Assembly (NCBI RefSeq): GCF_053078305.1
Contig: NZ_CP166879.1
Direction: 5' to 3' (one strand)
DNA length: 64,000 nucleotides
Of this stretch, positions 38,225 through 51,739 are shown piece after piece; position 1 is the stretch's first letter, and every line of letters begins with the position of its first letter. Under the pieces are notes generated by a model. It was not told the origin of the DNA. It ran no database searches and saw only the letters and a program-made list of their open reading frames with translations. The position numbers and the translations under genes are program-made.

Positions 38225-38569
38225 TTACTTTAATAATTTCAGTGCCTTTACATCAACTTCAACACTGCTCAGGTCTTTATCAATTTCACCCTCAATTCTT
38301 ACTTTGTCTTTCGGAGAAACATTCTGCCCGGCCCATACGCTGTCATCAATATCCGTGACAATTGTCCCGCTATTGTCACGAAACTCATAACGTTCATCAC
38401 CCACTTTTTTAATGATGCTCCCTTCAAGGATAACCCATGCATCATCCTTCAGTTCTTTTGCCTGCGCTACTGTTGAACGCTCTGCTTCAGGCCCCTGGAA
38501 ACCACCCTGCTGTGCAAAAACGCCAAAAGACACACCGGAAATAAGTGCTGCAATCAATACCTTTTTCAT
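38225..38569 (-). CDS. Periplasmic OB-fold protein, YgiW/YdeI (BOF) family; moron
   Basis: Signal peptide MKKVLIAALISGVSFGVFA; QGGFQGP...AKELKDDAWVILEGSIIKKVGDERYEFRDNSGTI... resembles YdeI/YgiW. Confidence 0.7.
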   Translation of the reverse strand: MKKVLIAALISGVSFGVFAQQGGFQGPEAERSTVAQAKELKDDAWVILEGSIIKKVGDERYEFRDNSGTIVTDIDDSVWAGQNVSPKDKVRIEGEIDKDLSSVEVDVKALKLLK

Positions 38570-38690: not shown

Positions 38691-38846
38691 TTACTTCTCA
38701 GATTCGTAGTCTACGAAGACAGCAACCTCCGTCTGGCCGGTTCGGATTCGTACCTCGCAGAGGTCTTTCCTCGTTACCAGTGCCGTCACAACAACGGTAA
38801 TACAGATGACGATCAGGGCGATTAACATCGCCTTTTGCTGCTTCAT
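38691..38846 (-). CDS. hok: Hok-family type I toxin (51 aa)
   Basis: MKQQKAMLIALIVICITVVVTALVTRKDLCEVRIRTGQTEVAVFVDYESEK; track ORF extends upstream (mok-like reading frame). Confidence 0.8.
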   Translation of the reverse strand: MKQQKAMLIALIVICITVVVTALVTRKDLCEVRIRTGQTEVAVFVDYESEK

Positions 38847-39136
38847 AGCCTGCTTCTCCTTGCCTTTCGGCACGTAAGAGGCTAACCTACGTTTGTGAAG
38901 CATAGATTGGGCCTCAGATTAATGTTAAGCGTCCTGCAAGACGCGTAATGTTAACTGGGGCTTTTCTCTGTCTGCCTTACGGCGGCATGCCCGAGGCAGA
39001 CAGCCTCAAGCACCCGCAGCAATTCTACTTAACTCTTCTTTCCCCGCAAACCGTTTTTATCCCCAGCGGCAAATCGAATACACCACCAGCGCCACCGCCA
39101 TTGCAATACCAACATTTGAGAAGGCCTCAGGCCAGC

Positions 39137-39490
39137 TCATTGGCGCACCTCCTTCGGCGGTTCTGGTAGCGGCATCCAGTGTGTGGCTTCACACACGATA
39201 GGCGCACCGAAACACTGCGCATACTGGAAGTCACCCGTATTATCCAGGTTAAAACCTGTAAACTGTTCCCCCGTGCTGGACACAAACAGTTGTACATCAA
39301 CACCAACTGGCGGCATTCGCTCACTACAGCTTATCCAACCATCCGGAGTTACCGGAGAATTGCCAGCCTTGCACATGGCAATCTCCATGATTTCAACCAT
39401 ATCTCCTGGTGGAATTTTACAATGCTGACCAATATGCCTCTGCTGCCTGGCATATTCGAGGATGTGCTCCAGTTTGGTTCGATCAATCAT
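39137..39490 (-). CDS. Hypothetical nin-region protein (DUF551-like?)
   Basis: 117 aa, Cys-containing; family assignment from memory only. Confidence 0.35.
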   Translation of the reverse strand: MIDRTKLEHILEYARQQRHIGQHCKIPPGDMVEIMEIAMCKAGNSPVTPDGWISCSERMPPVGVDVQLFVSSTGEQFTGFNLDNTGDFQYAQCFGAPIVCEATHWMPLPEPPKEVRQ

Positions 39491-39855
39491 GATTTATCTC
39501 CATTAAGCATTGCAGCACGGCAATCGTTCCATCCTTCAGCATAATCACTATGCGCAAGAGGCCAACCTCTTATGTATTCACGCGGCGACTTATCAGGCAC
39601 TACCAGCGCTGGCGGGACGGCAAATAGATATCCGCCAAAGTCAGGAAGCTCTCCAATGGCCTGTACGAACTTTTGTTTGCCTACGTCAACTCCTAATGGG
39701 TAATGAGCTATAATCTTTGCCACTGGCTCTGCTTCCAGCGATGCCAGTGCGATAAGCGCCAGCTCACGAATTTCACCGCCGTCTATATCGTCAATGTCAT
39801 CGCGGCCAGAAATGTTAGCCAGCCATTGCAGTCGCTCTTTGGTAATAGTGGTCAT
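39487..39855 (-). CDS. Hypothetical protein
   Basis: 122 aa ORF, stop-start overlap with neighbours. Confidence 0.35.
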   Translation of the reverse strand: MTTITKERLQWLANISGRDDIDDIDGGEIRELALIALASLEAEPVAKIIAHYPLGVDVGKQKFVQAIGELPDFGGYLFAVPPALVVPDKSPREYIRGWPLAHSDYAEGWNDCRAAMLNGDKS

Positions 39856-39856
39856 C

Positions 39857-40201
39857 TCACTCTCCTTCTATGCGAATACCAGCAACAGTCAGTGCGGCAT
39901 TGACCTCATCAGCGTAGTAGTACGTTAATCCACTTGATGATTTAGCCAGCTTGAATGGTTCTGGTAACTTCACTATGCGGGACTCCTGCTCGTCGATACG
40001 CTGTTTTGCTTCCTCCAGTTCATCCAGCAAATCAGCGATAATATCCACTTCACGATGACGGATTTCACACTTAAACGCAGCCAAAGCTGCATCACAATCC
40101 TGCTCAGCGTTTGGACTGTCTGGTTTCTCCTGATACCACGCCAGCATCGACCGATAGTTTTGTGCTGCCTCACGCAATGCCTGATAGTCAATCTTGCTCA
40201 C
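39857..40201 (-). CDS. Ead/Ea22-like protein, short paralog; GTG start
   Basis: (V)SKIDYQALREAA...; AGGAGGCAACCA-GTG initiation region identical to the downstream paralog. Confidence 0.5.
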   Translation of the reverse strand: MSKIDYQALREAAQNYRSMLAWYQEKPDSPNAEQDCDAALAAFKCEIRHREVDIIADLLDELEEAKQRIDEQESRIVKLPEPFKLAKSSSGLTYYYADEVNAALTVAGIRIEGE

Positions 40202-40848
40202 TGGTTGCCTCCTTTGCGAAGCTGGGCAGCAAAGTCAACTAACCACTCAGTCATTTCAACCTTCCCTATCAGGTCTGAACCAGGGTGCATACAGCAATCA
40301 CTCTGCGCCGCTTTGAAATCCTTATACTCATATTCTTGGGCCACCAGATTTTTTGCAGCTTCTATAGCAGCATCCACCCCCAGCGCCCGCACTTCAGACA
40401 GGAAAGCATCGGTGGCTGGCATATTTCCTGTTGCCTTCATGGCCTCCAAAATAACCAGAACGCCATCTCTCCCAACCTCCTCGCAGATAACCTCGGTGTT
40501 GTCGCCAACAACATCGCAGAATGCCTGAACTGCTTTACGAGCAAGTGCATTCTCCGCCGCCAGCGCCACAAGATTAGCTTCCAGCTCGGCAATACGTTTG
40601 CTTTGGGCTTCCCGTTCATCCAGCAGTGCCTGTACTACTTCAGGGTTGAAAGCTGCAATAAATTCTGCGTTGTTCTCTGCATTTTTCTGGTCATCAAAGC
40701 CAGGCCATTTGATAATGTCTCCGCAACGTTCATCCCCCGGCGTATGCACCGCATATGTATCAGTGCCCGGCGAAATGAATGCGACCCATTCGCCCTGGGT
40801 TGCCAGTTTTGCTATCTCACGTAGCGTCTGATAATTAATTTTTCTCAC
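40198..40848 (-). CDS. Ead/Ea22-like protein; GTG start at 40848
   Basis: (V)RKINYQTLREIAKLATQGEW...; AGGAGG RBS 6 nt before GTG; coiled-coil middle. Confidence 0.5.
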   Translation of the reverse strand: MRKINYQTLREIAKLATQGEWVAFISPGTDTYAVHTPGDERCGDIIKWPGFDDQKNAENNAEFIAAFNPEVVQALLDEREAQSKRIAELEANLVALAAENALARKAVQAFCDVVGDNTEVICEEVGRDGVLVILEAMKATGNMPATDAFLSEVRALGVDAAIEAAKNLVAQEYEYKDFKAAQSDCCMHPGSDLIGKVEMTEWLVDFAAQLRKGGNQ

Positions 40849-41140
40849 TGGTTGCCTCCTGGAAAATAACCGCATGTCCCAGTTTCTCCGCCAGTGCCAG
40901 TTCTGCCTTAGCGCCTGCCGACCGCTGCCAGCCTTTCAGCATATAAACCGCATCCACACAACGAATCATTGCCATGCAAATATCCATGTACTGCGGCTGA
41001 GTCAGCCCGTCCGGAAGTACTGCCGGGTTTAAAACGGTATGCCCTTCCCGTTTCAGTGCTTCTTCCGCCCTGTGAAATGCCTCGCGGTTGAAATTTTCAT
41101 ATCCCGTCATTGGACCGGCGATATAAATGCTCACCCTCAC
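40835..41140 (-). CDS. DUF4406-like (nucleoside 2-deoxyribosyltransferase-like fold) protein
   Basis: MRVSIYIAGPMTGYENFNREAFHRAEEALKREGHTVLNPA... Confidence 0.5.
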   Translation of the reverse strand: MRVSIYIAGPMTGYENFNREAFHRAEEALKREGHTVLNPAVLPDGLTQPQYMDICMAMIRCVDAVYMLKGWQRSAGAKAELALAEKLGHAVIFQEATSEKN

Positions 41141-41391
41141 GCCTGAACCCTCCTGTCGAAATAAACGTAGTTATTCACTATGCGCAGCGGCATGCCTAAT
41201 TTTCTGGCAATTTCCCTTCTTTGCATGCCTCTCTGATGCAGTTGCCGCGCCAGCTCAATATCACGCTGAGAATATTTTGCTGACTGGTGATAATCACCCC
41301 GTAACATCATGCTGATACCCAGTTCCCGCGCTTTCGTCCTGACGGCTGACTCACTACGGCCAATCAGATAACCGATGCTTTCGACTCTCAT
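41137..41391 (-). CDS. Hypothetical HTH protein (84 aa from internal ATG)
   Basis: ...MQRREIARKLGMPLRIVNNYV... HTH-like segment; start uncertain. Confidence 0.3.
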   Translation of the reverse strand: MRVESIGYLIGRSESAVRTKARELGISMMLRGDYHQSAKYSQRDIELARQLHQRGMQRREIARKLGMPLRIVNNYVYFDRRVQA

Positions 41392-47994: not shown

Positions 47995-50433
47995 ATGAGC
48001 ACTGATAAAGAAGAATTTTCGCTATATTGCGAAGCAAAAAATGACAAGGTCAGAAAACGCCTTGGGATTAAAGGAGGTTTTTACTGGACTACAGCAAAAA
48101 AATTATCTGTTGCCATCTCACGGTGCGTTGTTGCAATGGACGAGGCAGGCTACGACGCTGATGATTTCAAAAAACCTGTCCGCGTCCATTTCCCCGTTGT
48201 GAATGACCTTCCACCGGAAGGCGTGTTTGATACCGAATTCTGCAACCGCTATGAAAAAGGCGGGGAAGATGGCATCACAATGATATTTATAGCGCCTTCC
48301 CCCTCAGTTCAGGACAAACCAGCCAGCACTGACAATACCAACGTCAATGGCGAAGACATGGCTGAGATTGAGGATAATATGCTCCTGCCGATTTCCGGTC
48401 AGGAACTGCCCATTCGCTGGCTTGCGCAACATGGCAGCGAAAAACCGGTAACGCACGTTTCACGGGAAGAACTTCAGGCATTACATATCGCACGAGCTGA
48501 AGAACTGCCGGCTGTTACTGCCCTGGCTATTTCCCACAACACAAAGCTGCTCGACCCGCTGGAGATTCGCGACCTTCATAAACTGGTACGCGACACAGAC
48601 AAAGTTTTCCCTAATCCCGTTAATTCCAGTCTGGGGTTAATGACTGCTTTTTTCGAAGCATACCTGGACGCTGACTATACCGATCGAGGTCTGCTGACAA
48701 AAGAGTGGATGAAAGGAAATCGTGTTTCTCGCATCACCCGCACGGCTTCCGGTGCAAATGCCGGTGGCGGAAATAAAACCGATCGTAATCCTGACTTAGT
48801 ACACACCCTCGATACTCTGGATGTGGAGGCTGCAGCAGCCACACTTCCGATGGATTTTAATATTTATGAAATACCCGTGAGCGTTTATCGTCGCGCAAAA
48901 GAAATCGTCCTGAAAAAAGAAAGTCCGTTCAGGGAATGGTCCGCAGCACTTCGCGCAACCCCTGGTATCCTGGACTATTCCCGCGCAGCTATTTTTGCAC
49001 TTATCCGGAGCGCCCACCCTGAGTTTTATCACTACCCGGGACGCCTTCAGGGGTATATCAATGCCAACCTGACAGAAACTGATCACGAGAATCCCACAGC
49101 TGAAACGCTCATGGCTGCCCGGCATACACCGGAAAAAGATATCCTGGAAGAAATTAACGGCGGACTGGCTGCTGAGTGCAAAACAGAAGAAGAAAAAAAT
49201 GATGAAGAAAACCCGCAACCATCTGGCGCAATGGCAGATGAACAGGCAACGGCTGAAACAATGGCAGCGGATACAGTTGAACATCATCAGGACCCGCAGC
49301 CGCTGGATGACAAGTCACAGGTAAAAGTTACTGCTGAAGAAGTAAATAAAATTATGGAGGCAGCAGACATCAGTCGACCAGATGCCGACAAATTGCTTGC
49401 CGCTTCTCGTGGTGAGTTTGTTGAAGGGATTAGCGACCCGAATGATTCGAAATGGGTTAAGGGGATTGAAACCTGCGATTCTGTGAACCAGAACCAGCAA
49501 GAAACGGAACAGAACGGTCAGAAAGCGGAACAAAACAGCCCAAATGCGTTACAAAACGAGCCAGAAACGAAACAACCTGAACCAGTAGTGCAACAGGAAG
49601 AGGAAAAAGTTTGTACCGCATGCAATCAGACTGGTGGTGGTAACTGCCCTGATTGTGGCGCAGTGATGGGGGACGCAACCTACCAGGAGACATTCAACGA
49701 AGAAAGCCAGGATGAAGCCCGGGAAAAAGATCCGGAGGAAATGGAAAGTGCCGGACTCCCGAACAAGGAGTGCACCGAAGGCGATCAACATGCCAATGGC
49801 AATAATGAAACAGGCGAGACAGCAAATCCCTTAATTAAGGTGAACGGTCATCGTGAAATCACATCCACCAGCAGGTTATGGCACCATCTGATGATTGACC
49901 TTGAAACAATGGGCAAAAATCCTGACGCACCAATAGCCTCAATAGGCGCTGTATTTTTCGATCCACAAACCGGAGAGCAGGGGCCTGAATTCAGCAAAAT
50001 AATTGATATGGGTACATGTGGCGGCACTGTAGACATAAGCACCATCGAATGGTGGCTTCAACGCTCTGGCGAAGCCCGTGCCGCCATTTTAGCTGATCGA
50101 ATACCGCTTGATGATGCGCTTTTACAATTACGGGAATTTATAGACGAAAACTCCGGTGAGTTTTTTGTTCAGGTCTGGGGAAATGGAGCCAACTTCGACA
50201 ACGTGATTTTACGCCGTTCATATGAACGGCAGGAGATCCCCTGCCCGTGGCGTTACACCAATGATCGTGATGTAAGAACGATTGTTGCCCTGGGGCTGGT
50301 GATGGATTTCGATGCTCGAAGTGTCATCACATTTGAGGGTGAACGCCATAATGCCCTGCACGATGCGCGTTACCAGGCAAAATACGTTTCAGCTATCTGG
50401 CAAAAACTGTTCCCGAATCAGGCTGATTTTTAA
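47995..50433 (+). CDS. Large early-left protein: RecE-like N-terminal region + acidic linker + Cys4 zinc ribbon + C-terminal DEDDh 3'-5' exonuclease domain
   Basis: C-terminus MIDLETMG ... WGNGANFDN ... [10 protein letters not shown] (Exo I-III motifs); [16 protein letters not shown]; N-terminal blocks recalled as RecE-like. Confidence 0.6.
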
Positions 50434-50499: not shown

Positions 50500-50751
50500 A
50501 TGTACGAATTAACTCTATCGCCAGCAGAAATTCAAGAGATCACGAGATACGAACGGTATACAAAACAGCAACAACAGTTAAGGTTGCACGGTATCCCATT
50601 TGTACCCGGTCCTAAAAACGAACCAATAGTTCTTCGCAGTGATGTCCCGCGCGGACTGACTGCGATACCGAAAGTATCTGAACTGGTTTCTGCTGACCCC
50701 GATTTTGAGGCGCTGAACAATGGGAAGACCAAGAAAAAACAAAAAAGATAA
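50500..50751 (+). CDS. xis: Putative excisionase
   Basis: Small basic protein immediately upstream of and overlapping int. Confidence 0.5.
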   Translation: MYELTLSPAEIQEITRYERYTKQQQQLRLHGIPFVPGPKNEPIVLRSDVPRGLTAIPKVSELVSADPDFEALNNGKTKKKQKR

Positions 50752-51739
50752 TGCACTACCGCCACGTGTTAGATCGAATGGTTACAGTTACGTATGGAAA
50801 CCCGAAGGAAGCACAAAAACTATAGGGCTAGGAAGAGTGCGGGAAACCAGCATAGCTAAAGTCTGGCAGAATTATGAACTGGAAAAAGCAAAACGCCACA
50901 ACATAATGACCGTCGCTAAATTATGGCACATGTTTATGGATTCCCCCGCATTTACAGAACTGGCCCCCAGAACCCAAAAAGATTATCGGCAACATCAGAG
51001 GGCGTTACTGGCAGTCTTCGGAAAAGTACTGGCTGATAATGTAAAAATTGAGCAGGTAAGAATTTTCATGGATAAACGGGGGATTGAGAGCAAGACCCAG
51101 GCAAACCATGAACTGGCAAGTCTCAGTCGTGTATACGGGTGGGGATATGAGCGTGGATATGTGAAGAATAACCCATGCAAAGGAGTCAGGAAATTTACGC
51201 TTAAAGCCCGCACTGTTTACATCACAGATGAACAGTATGCGGCGATATATGCGGAAGCAATACCACAGTTACGCATTGCAATGGAGATATCCTATCTTTG
51301 TGCGGCAAGACTCGGTGATGTGCTCGAGCTGAAATGGCAGGATATTATGGATAAAGGAATCTACATTGAGCAAAACAAGACCGGCACCAAACAAATCAAG
51401 GAATGGTCTCCACGATTACGAACCGCGATCCAGTTAGCCAGAAATGTATCTTCAGGCACATGTGAATATGTGATCAACACAACCAAGGGCGGGAAGGTCA
51501 TAGCTAAAACGCTAAACAACTGGTGGAACCAGGCTAAACACGCAGCCGAGAAAAAATCCGGCGTCCCGTTTGGGTGCAATTTCCATGACATAAAAGCCAA
51601 AGGAATATCAGATTACGAAGGAAGCAGTCGCGACAAACAGATTTTCAGTGGACATAAAACAGAAAATCAGGTGTTGATTTATGATCGTAAAACAAAAATC
51701 ACGCCGACACTGGATTTGCCACTTGTGGTCAGCAAGTAG
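50720..51739 (+). CDS. int: Tyrosine integrase
   Basis: 339 aa; catalytic R (AARLGDV), H-x-x-K and terminal HKTENQVLIYDRK (Tyr) motifs; adjacent to attR. Confidence 0.85.
   Translation: MGRPRKNKKDNALPPRVRSNGYSYVWKPEGSTKTIGLGRVRETSIAKVWQNYELEKAKRHNIMTVAKLWHMFMDSPAFTELAPRTQKDYRQHQRALLAVFGKVLADNVKIEQVRIFMDKRGIESKTQANHELASLSRVYGWGYERGYVKNNPCKGVRKFTLKARTVYITDEQYAAIYAEAIPQLRIAMEISYLCAARLGDVLELKWQDIMDKGIYIEQNKTGTKQIKEWSPRLRTAIQLARNVSSGTCEYVINTTKGGKVIAKTLNNWWNQAKHAAEKKSGVPFGCNFHDIKAKGISDYEGSSRDKQIFSGHKTENQVLIYDRKTKITPTLDLPLVVSK

Follow-up and report, generated by a model that had tools for sequence, protein, structure and literature searches.

A 64-kb stretch of contig NZ_CP166879.1 (RefSeq assembly GCF_053078305.1; 64,000 nucleotides (nt), hereafter the window) contains a lambdoid E. 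coli prophage with two tandem genes of the Ead/Ea22-like family, denoted here Ea22L and Ea22S, which share an exact 17-nt sequence, AGGAGGCAACCAGTGAG, spanning their GTG start codons. Comparison with other phages and prophages revealed that this 17-nt core is conserved, that it stands between many combinations of upstream and downstream genes, that homology between related sequences switches at the core and that genes have been cleanly gained or lost there. Taken together, the sequence comparisons make it fairly probable that the core is a conserved, translationally coupled gene-boundary linker and, at the same time, a recombination joint for the exchange of gene cassettes. From the same comparisons we infer the mechanism of recombination, selection for it and the functional nature of the translational coupling.

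The core is composed of AGGAGGCAACCA followed by GTG and AG. An earlier note, made from the letters of the window alone, had observed that both genes start with GTG after the same AGGAGGCAACCA. This is correct for the minus strand, on which the exact 17-mer is found twice, each time followed by the codons of a similar N-terminal head peptide (VRKINYQTLREIAKL and VSKIDYQALREAAQN; pattern V(S/R)KI(D/N)YQ(A/T)LRE). Past the core, the head DNA of Ea22L and Ea22S is identical at 26 of 37 positions, and core and head together form a 54-nt direct repeat, the copies of which are 80% identical and spaced by 647 nt. No third copy of the core with up to two mismatches is present in the 64-kb window, where 0.01 copies would be expected by chance according to shuffles. 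At copy 1, the reading frame of the DUF4406 gene continues through the core, encoding QEATSEKN, up to a TAA stop within the ATT-AAT codons of Ea22L, the overlap between the two genes being 14 nt (40835-40848). By position, both junctions have the arrangement of translationally coupled genes, with overlapping stop and start and a Shine-Dalgarno sequence inside the upstream gene; the core would supply such coupling through the strong AAGGAGG, the 6-nt spacer and the stop/start overlap. Two other candidate features of the junction were rejected, namely, a −1 frameshift fusing Ea22L to Ea22S, for which inspection found no slippery heptamer before the GTGA (CAACCAGTGA), and a Chi-like site on the complementary strand, where the agreement of ACTGGTTG with GCTGGTGG, limited to 6 of 8 positions, is unconvincing.

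An exact-match scan of IMG/VR for the core retrieved at least 120 stretches, and an 86-nt query comprising tail, core and head matched 359 phage records from Escherichia, Shiga toxin (Stx)-converting, Salmonella P22-like and Shigella phages. Loci were sampled for containing the core or the head, and the flanking genes were translated for 138 core instances. Downstream of the core, the Ea22 head was found in 104 of the 138 instances, on 17 different bodies, and the other 34 represent eight families without the Ea22 head (VSNSARLQLG..., VSGKRMTNRE..., VSVYLIDKRR..., VSESKCQING..., VSVTVEKIDV..., VSNRFYMMC... and others). The upstream genes end in two ways. In 97 cases the protein terminates with ...(F)A(A/D/E)(Q/E)(L/I)RKGGNQ, with the TGA stop overlapping the GTG (GTGA); the RKGGNQ tail occurs on more than 20 different C-terminal bodies. 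In 34 cases, coming from unrelated families such as DUF4406 and DUF1627, the protein ends with ...(K/Q)EATSE(Q/R/K)(D/N); these genes read through the core, and their stop, TGA or TAA, is formed within the downstream ATT-GAC or ATT-AAT codons. When 127 junctions were clustered, 86 combinations were distinguished between 37 types of upstream flank and 29 types of downstream flank; six different partners follow the C-terminal domain of the window's Ea22L. Of the versions of this junction, which is common to many unrelated gene pairs, the identical 17-mer is found most often. Since the core is located both on the 3′ tails of many genes and at the 5′ ends of many others, it would represent a portable linker.

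Two additional observations concern the distribution of the core. In six loci (L041, L042, L074, L080, L098 and L111), an 84-amino acid (aa) gene (VSNSARLQLGFSPLSK...) has the exact 17-mer on each side, 241 nt apart, and lies between an Ea22-type tail and an Ea22 head, i.e. a single small cassette with two linker copies. The junction is also found at 89.7% identity, along with an annotated Ead/Ea22-like protein, in PP818812.1, a record named Actinobacillus phage vB_Apl-pPE4, a surprising host name for a lambdoid sequence of enterobacterial type.

The information content of the aligned junctions is high from −22 to −1 (the tail), across the core and from +17 to about +65 (the head), and collapses at the edge of the core when the neighboring gene belongs to another family. 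Compared in pairs, 122 unique contexts with 250-nt flanks included 235 pairs sharing the upstream flank only, 336 sharing the downstream flank only and 41 sharing both; pairwise similarity among these contexts ended at either edge of the core or where the head or tail stops. When the window was compared with about 200 loci, the ends of BLAST high-scoring segment pairs clustered at 40160-40219, with further clusters at conserved blocks inside Ea22L (40360-40440 and around 40560). Of 5426 complete E. coli genomes, 2312 matched the 1.9-kb region in pieces and only three over 80% or more of its length, and each of Ea22L and Ea22S has copies with 97-100% identity elsewhere, in other arrangements.

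Gain and loss of genes at the junction can be followed in related prophages, including those of Shiga-toxin strains, by comparing the content between the DUF4406 gene and hok. In the window this interval contains Ea22L, Ea22S, a hypothetical gene (hyp122) and a DUF551 gene. Locus L001 has the same set with an extra 109-aa gene between Ea22L and Ea22S; in L002 and L211, Ea22S directly follows the DUF4406 gene and Ea22L is absent; L210 has a 200-aa Ea22 gene, five other genes, Ea22S and two hypothetical genes; and L212 has a 187-aa Ea22 gene, an Ea22 pseudogene and a DUF551 gene. L002 corresponds to the window minus exactly the 647-bp Ea22L unit, matching the flank of copy 1 upstream (293 of 300 positions) and the flank of copy 2 downstream (335 of 345). 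Similarly, L211 corresponds to L210 without the six genes between two cores, with identity at 45 of 45 adjacent upstream bases and 342 of 345 downstream bases, and the switch point lies inside the 17-nt core. A direct crossover between the two heads of the window was considered as the source of L002 and rejected, because the L002 head (TGGG ATT AAT...) is a separate allele; the same allele is present in L210, so the parent of L002 did not have the exact window sequence.

The head and the core can be separated. A head-anchored scan (ATTGACTATCAGGCNCTGCG) gave 109 unique contexts, in 64% of which the core was present within three mismatches, 28 of them exact. From these contexts, the head is a protein-level signature of the family and the core a DNA-level junction, and each can be present in the absence of the other. 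Synonymous sites of the head are strongly biased relative to codon usage in the bodies (ATT in 56 of 57 cases vs a frequency of 0.50, CGT in 52 of 56 vs 0.18 and GCA in 37 of 41 vs 0.31). The T of ATT is required because the out-of-frame TGA or TAA that terminates EATSE-type upstream genes needs it.

We propose that the shared 5′ end of Ea22L and Ea22S consists of two separable elements, the DNA-level core AGGAGGCAACCAGTGAG and the N-terminal head peptide, which is the initial helix of the Ead_Ea22 domain. In either of two frames, the core closes the upstream gene, by a TGA overlapping the GTG or by a TGA/TAA inside ATT-GAC or ATT-AAT. Whole genes would then be added, deleted or swapped when phages and prophages exchange DNA by homologous or short-homology recombination at the core and the flanking head or tail, the operon always remaining translationally coupled and correctly terminated. 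The identity of the two copies in the window would thus reflect a population-wide linker, not a local duplication. The RecE-like exonuclease of the window prophage is a point in favor of recombination. The recombinases of lambdoid phages act on short and diverged sequences, and RecET can use 5-13 bp at a low frequency of about 1e−8 (PMC2327257).

Several considerations weigh against this proposal. The evidence is all comparative, no recombination event having been seen directly. Exact identity extends over only 17 nt, less than the approximately 30 bp needed for efficient Red recombination (PMC3945230), and the flanking heads in the window are only 70% identical between the copies. The loci were chosen for having the core or the head, so the observed frequencies are biased. 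In the head-anchored sample, 36% of heads have unrelated initiation regions, and the Shine-Dalgarno sequence and spacer of lambda ea22 differ from the core, which argues that the head owes its conservation to the protein and not to the core. The synonymous-site test of the head ignores shared ancestry. Finally, illegitimate recombination combined with selection for intact gene boundaries could produce a similar picture.

If the core were a near-optimal coupling signal and the head a needed protein motif, the junction could be explained by functional constraint alone, recombination being incidental and not more frequent there than at other places. Consistent with this, the core combines a strong AAGGAGG with a 6-nt spacer and the GTGA overlap, 4-nt overlaps and AGGAGG-N7-GTGAG are also seen at other genes of the operon, and the head is kept beside unrelated initiation regions and in lambda, the Pfam profile itself beginning at the head. 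However, it is not obvious what would require the CAACCA spacer or the AG following GTG, and both nevertheless recur in front of unrelated genes as well as behind unrelated genes that are read in another frame. Neither the switch of homology exactly at the core edges, nor the 86 partner combinations, nor the near-invariant synonymous sites of the head would be expected from constraint of this kind, which we consider rather unlikely to be the whole explanation.

The established view of Hendrix and Juhala, as cited in PMC2327257, is that joints arise at random by illegitimate (non-homologous) recombination and that only those at gene boundaries survive selection; the core would then simply travel with one of the two partners. 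In line with this scenario, conservation in the EATSE class begins abruptly at the core, as if the downstream gene had moved with its own ribosome-binding site, and only AAAGGAG is shared at the left end of the insertion in L001. On the other hand, the core is the 3′ end of upstream modules (the tail class is found before non-Ea22 genes) as well as the 5′ end of downstream modules, which means that both parents had the core before the exchange, and the core is restored without change at the joints in L002 and L211. We regard random joining as unlikely.

A recent duplication had been suggested in the earlier note, alongside a recombination hotspot. A local tandem duplication followed by divergence, with the initiation region as its least-diverged remnant, would agree with the adjacent position, the same orientation and the common Pfam family of the two genes, and with the 54-nt repeat recurring at a period of 647 nt. 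Nevertheless, DNA similarity is confined to this repeat and to a 46-nt patch with 72% identity (39984-40029 vs 40580-40625) covering the LLDExE start of the coiled coil, and the proteins are only 27% identical (BLASTP E-value = 2e−4), with large indels. In addition, each gene is found at 97-100% identity elsewhere without the other, or separated from it by one to five genes, and the widespread 17-mer also precedes genes without the Ea22 head. A recent duplication is thus very unlikely; with 27% identity, Ea22L and Ea22S appear to be real but old, diverged paralogs within a mosaic family. The resemblance does reach beyond the few N-terminal codons, as indicated by the second patch, the Pfam matches and the BLASTP score, the homology being distant. 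The idea of a hotspot gains comparative support from the homology switches, the gain/loss variants and the partner combinations.

A cis-regulatory RNA or DNA element (leader, small RNA target, promoter/terminator or protein site) co-regulating the paralogs could explain identity in both genes and conservation at synonymous sites, but is hardly credible given that four RNA folds of the junctions scored z = −0.45 to +1.1 relative to shuffles and support no structure, that an Rfam scan of 36-44 kb gave no match at the junctions (its sole match being sok, beside hok), and that no promoter- or terminator-like site was detected at the junction on the coding strand, the counts being not above those in shuffles.

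Assignment of both proteins to the Ea22-like family, as proposed earlier, agrees with Pfam PF13935 (Ead_Ea22), for which Ea22L scores 93.5 bits (E-value = 2.3e−26) and Ea22S 33.7 bits (E-value = 6.6e−8) against a gathering cut-off of 27 bits, and with the names given by the Prokaryotic Genome Annotation Pipeline (PGAP). Both matches run from protein residues 2-3 and profile positions 1-2 onward, and residues M1, I4, L9, R10 and A13 are invariant across 38 aligned Ead/Ea22-like members, lambda Ea22 included. In near-identical E. coli prophages, PGAP places the starts at the same GTG codons and names the product Ea22-like. A 225-aa open reading frame (ORF) from ATG 40875 was rejected as a mechanical extension lacking a Shine-Dalgarno sequence, since PGAP and the family alignment favor GTG 40848. 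NCBIfam profiles gave no match for either protein, and a PDB sequence search with Ea22L returned nothing below E-value = 0.7.

Ea22L consists of the head, an N-domain, a long helix, a helical C-terminal domain and the tail FAAQLRKGGNQ, whereas Ea22S has the head, a short coiled coil and the lambda-type tail AGIRIEGE. The coiled coil of Ea22S is predicted from the sequence similarity of LLDELEEAKQRIDEQE. In the AlphaFold2 model of Ea22L, helices span residues 6-15 (the head) and 69-114, the N-domain is poorly defined and the C-terminal domain is helical; the mean predicted local distance difference test score (pLDDT) is 64 and the predicted template modeling score 0.33, with pLDDT of about 70-84 in helix 69-114. 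This confidence is too low to justify a fold search. Ea22 proteins are described as mosaic, with a short N-terminus, a long helix and a variable C-terminal domain (PMC10834534, PMC7093339), and this three-part architecture fits the model of modest confidence. Ea22L also contains an internal conserved block, PATDAFLSEVRALGV (40375-40419, minus strand), which recurs as TPATDAFLAEVRAQGVE in many Ea22-like proteins; blocks of this type precede hypervariable C-terminal segments. The block looks like an intragenic mosaic joint because the ends of BLAST segment pairs cluster at 40360-40440.

A second junction joins Ea22S to hyp122. Ea22S ends with ...GGT ATT CGC ATA GAA GGA GAG TGA G ATG, which combines the codons of the AGIRIEGE tail, a Shine-Dalgarno sequence and the ATG of hyp122. 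A 15-mer scan for this junction returned mostly chance environmental matches, and only the 40 instances with an Ea22-type tail were used. In these, AAGGAGAGTGAGATG with the tail AGIRI(K/E)GE joins at least nine Ea22 bodies to at least nine downstream genes, so that in the reuse of partners the second junction behaves like the 17-nt core. A relic of this junction, in which ATC replaces ATG, is preserved in lambda (L209, near 29847). At the DNA level, the junction may explain the "common K/RGE motif" reported for the C-termini of Ea22 proteins (PMC7093339).

Linker sequences reportedly formed part of the modular theory of lambdoid phage evolution advanced by Susskind and Botstein. As in descriptions of lambdoid linker or boundary sequences, the core is short, located at a gene boundary and shared by otherwise unrelated modules, and homology starts or ends there: unrelated modules were found to share it and the homology breakpoints of related genomes coincide with it. 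Unlike in those descriptions, the linker of the window is also a translation signal with dual-frame coding. For lambdoid phages, Clark et al. 2001, as cited in PMC2327257, proposed that homologous recombination takes place at short flanking sequences that are conserved; HK620, the phage of that study, carries the head and the second junction. Overlaps of the ATGA/GTGA type are shared with translationally coupled genes in general, and what is unusual here is the reuse of one junction between many unrelated pairs. The outcome resembles integron cassettes, in which small promoterless genes are added, lost or reordered at a repeated boundary, but the array in the window differs in having neither an attC-like imperfect inverted repeat nor an adjacent dedicated integrase. 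Presumably, exchange proceeds by general or phage homologous recombination and not by an integron-type reaction.

Lambda Ea22 begins with GTG AGC GAA ATT AAC... (VSEINSQALREAAEQ) and has in common with Ea22L and Ea22S the GTG-AGC start and the head VSxI(N/D)xQALREAA. Its tail, AGIRIKGE, matches the last eight residues of Ea22S (AGIRIEGE) as AGIRIxGE-stop. In BLASTP comparisons with lambda Ea22, the alignment is restricted to the head and a portion of the coil, to which Ea22S adds its 18 C-terminal residues; the C-terminal domain of lambda Ea22 is unrelated to those of the window genes, which argues against lambda orthology. P22 Ead belongs to the same family as lambda Ea22 and the window genes (PF13935, InterPro IPR025153). 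Tetramer formation and a pro-lysogenic phenotype are experimental properties of lambda Ea22 (PMC10834534, PMC7093339), and effects on lysogenization have been assayed for lambda and Stx Ea22. The lambda ea22 gene lies between exo and xis in the leftward early operon, whereas the window genes are in the rightward replication-to-Q region, between P and hok. By position, the earlier placement of the pair in the nin region thus holds, the genes lying between P and the hok/Q side. The junction itself is not nin-specific: Stx2 phage P13374 (O104:H4; L213, 4300-5429) has the same block (two Ea22-like genes, a small gene and DUF551), with the same junction between its two tandem Ea22-like genes, in the leftward early operon between exo/recT and xis, whereas the block of the window follows the replication genes. 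In the annotation of P13374, the start of the second Ea22-like gene is placed 37 nt before the conserved GTG, probably in error.

Whether phage mosaicism arises through short conserved linkers or through random illegitimate joining is a long-standing question, for which this junction provides a compact natural test case, with a 17-nt core between dozens of unrelated pairs and clean gain/loss variants. The gene family was already known, as were its mosaicism and the concept of linkers; the junction is a new, well-documented instance. It points to the DNA junction (the Shine-Dalgarno sequence of the next gene and the stop codon), rather than to protein function, as the likely source of the conserved termini reported for Ea22 proteins, and it bears on the interpretation and annotation of the poorly understood lysogeny-modulating Ea22 genes, including the choice of start codons. 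A broader and more doubtful extension is that Ea22-like genes and their neighbors form a cassette-shuffling system with dedicated, selected linkers (the 17-nt core with head/tail, and AGIRIKGE-stop/GGAGAGTGAGATG) acting within and between the exo-xis and nin operons. In such a system, the linkers would double as translation signals and dual-frame stop codons, and the single-strand-annealing recombinases of phages would combine accessory genes into an always expressible operon. Should this tentative extension be true, it would offer a concrete, testable instance of the Susskind-Botstein linker model, and the K/RGE and RKGGNQ termini would be DNA-level linkers, not protein features.

Table 1. 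Junctions, genes and other features in the window (coordinates are window positions)
Feature	Coordinates	Strand	Remarks
Junction core copy 1	40844..40860	minus	AGGAGG Shine-Dalgarno, CAACCA spacer (6 nt), GTG of Ea22L, AG
Junction core copy 2	40197..40213	minus	Identical 17-mer; GTG of Ea22S overlaps TGA of Ea22L (GTGA, 40198-40201)
54-nt direct repeat, copy A	40160..40213	minus	Core and Ea22S head codons
54-nt direct repeat, copy B	40807..40860	minus	Core and Ea22L head codons
Conserved Ea22L tail FAAQLRKGGNQ-stop	40198..40233	minus	Last codons double as Shine-Dalgarno and spacer of the next gene
Second junction	39855-39872	minus	AGIRIEGE-stop encoded by GAAGGAGAGTGAG-ATG
Ea22L, Ead/Ea22-like gene	40198..40848	minus	216 aa, GTG start; ORF, Pfam PF13935, PGAP start
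Ea22S, Ead/Ea22-like gene	39857..40201	minus	114 aa, GTG start; ORF, Pfam PF13935
Second homologous patch, Ea22S copy	39984..40029	minus	Codes for ADLLDELEEAKQRIDEQE
Second homologous patch, Ea22L copy	40580..40625	minus	Codes for LLDEREAQSKRIAELE
DUF4406 gene	40835..41140	minus	Upstream neighbor; 3′ end crosses core copy 1
hyp122	39487..39855	minus	Downstream of Ea22S, joined via second conserved junction GAAGGAGAGTGAGATG
DUF551 gene	39137..39490	minus	Last member of variable block; ATGA overlap with hyp122
hok/gef-type toxin ORF	38691-38903	minus	Directly downstream of variable block
sok antitoxin RNA, full-length	38841-39015	minus	Rfam RF01794, 117.7 bits
YgiW/YdeI-like OB-fold gene	38225-38569	minus	Near hok/sok
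RecE-like exonuclease VIII	47995-50433		812 aa, with Rv2179c-like exoribonuclease domain
Integrase	50720-51739		Directly after RecE-like gene

On the minus strand, the genes are arranged in the order DnaT/DUF1376 replication protein, P, DUF1627, DNA-binding protein, DUF4406, Ea22L, Ea22S, hyp122, DUF551, hok/sok and YgiW-like; in relatives, DUF968, RusA and Q come after the hok side. The left arm of the prophage comprises the repressor region, Rha/Ash and the RecE-like exonuclease VIII, followed directly by the integrase, with no recT-sized ORF (at least 110 aa) between the latter two. Chromosomal genes (Bax1-I/yccA-like, rlmI-like methyltransferase, DUF2057 and helicase IV) start at about 52.1 kb, which places the end of the prophage near 51.8 kb.

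DUF551 is known as the C-terminal domain of some Stx-phage Ea22 variants (PMC10834534), and genes that are separate here (39137-39855 and 40198-40848) appear fused elsewhere, or the reverse. PHROG 60, a profile of 461 positions, is matched both by hyp122 and by the N-terminus of Ea22L, at different positions. The DNA-binding gene and the DUF4406 gene are also joined by a GTGA overlap, and the start of the latter (41130-41160, minus strand) has a similar signal, AGGAGG-N7-GTGAGG, in addition to this overlap with the preceding gene. As a rule, genes of this tightly packed operon start with a GTG that forms a GTGA overlap.

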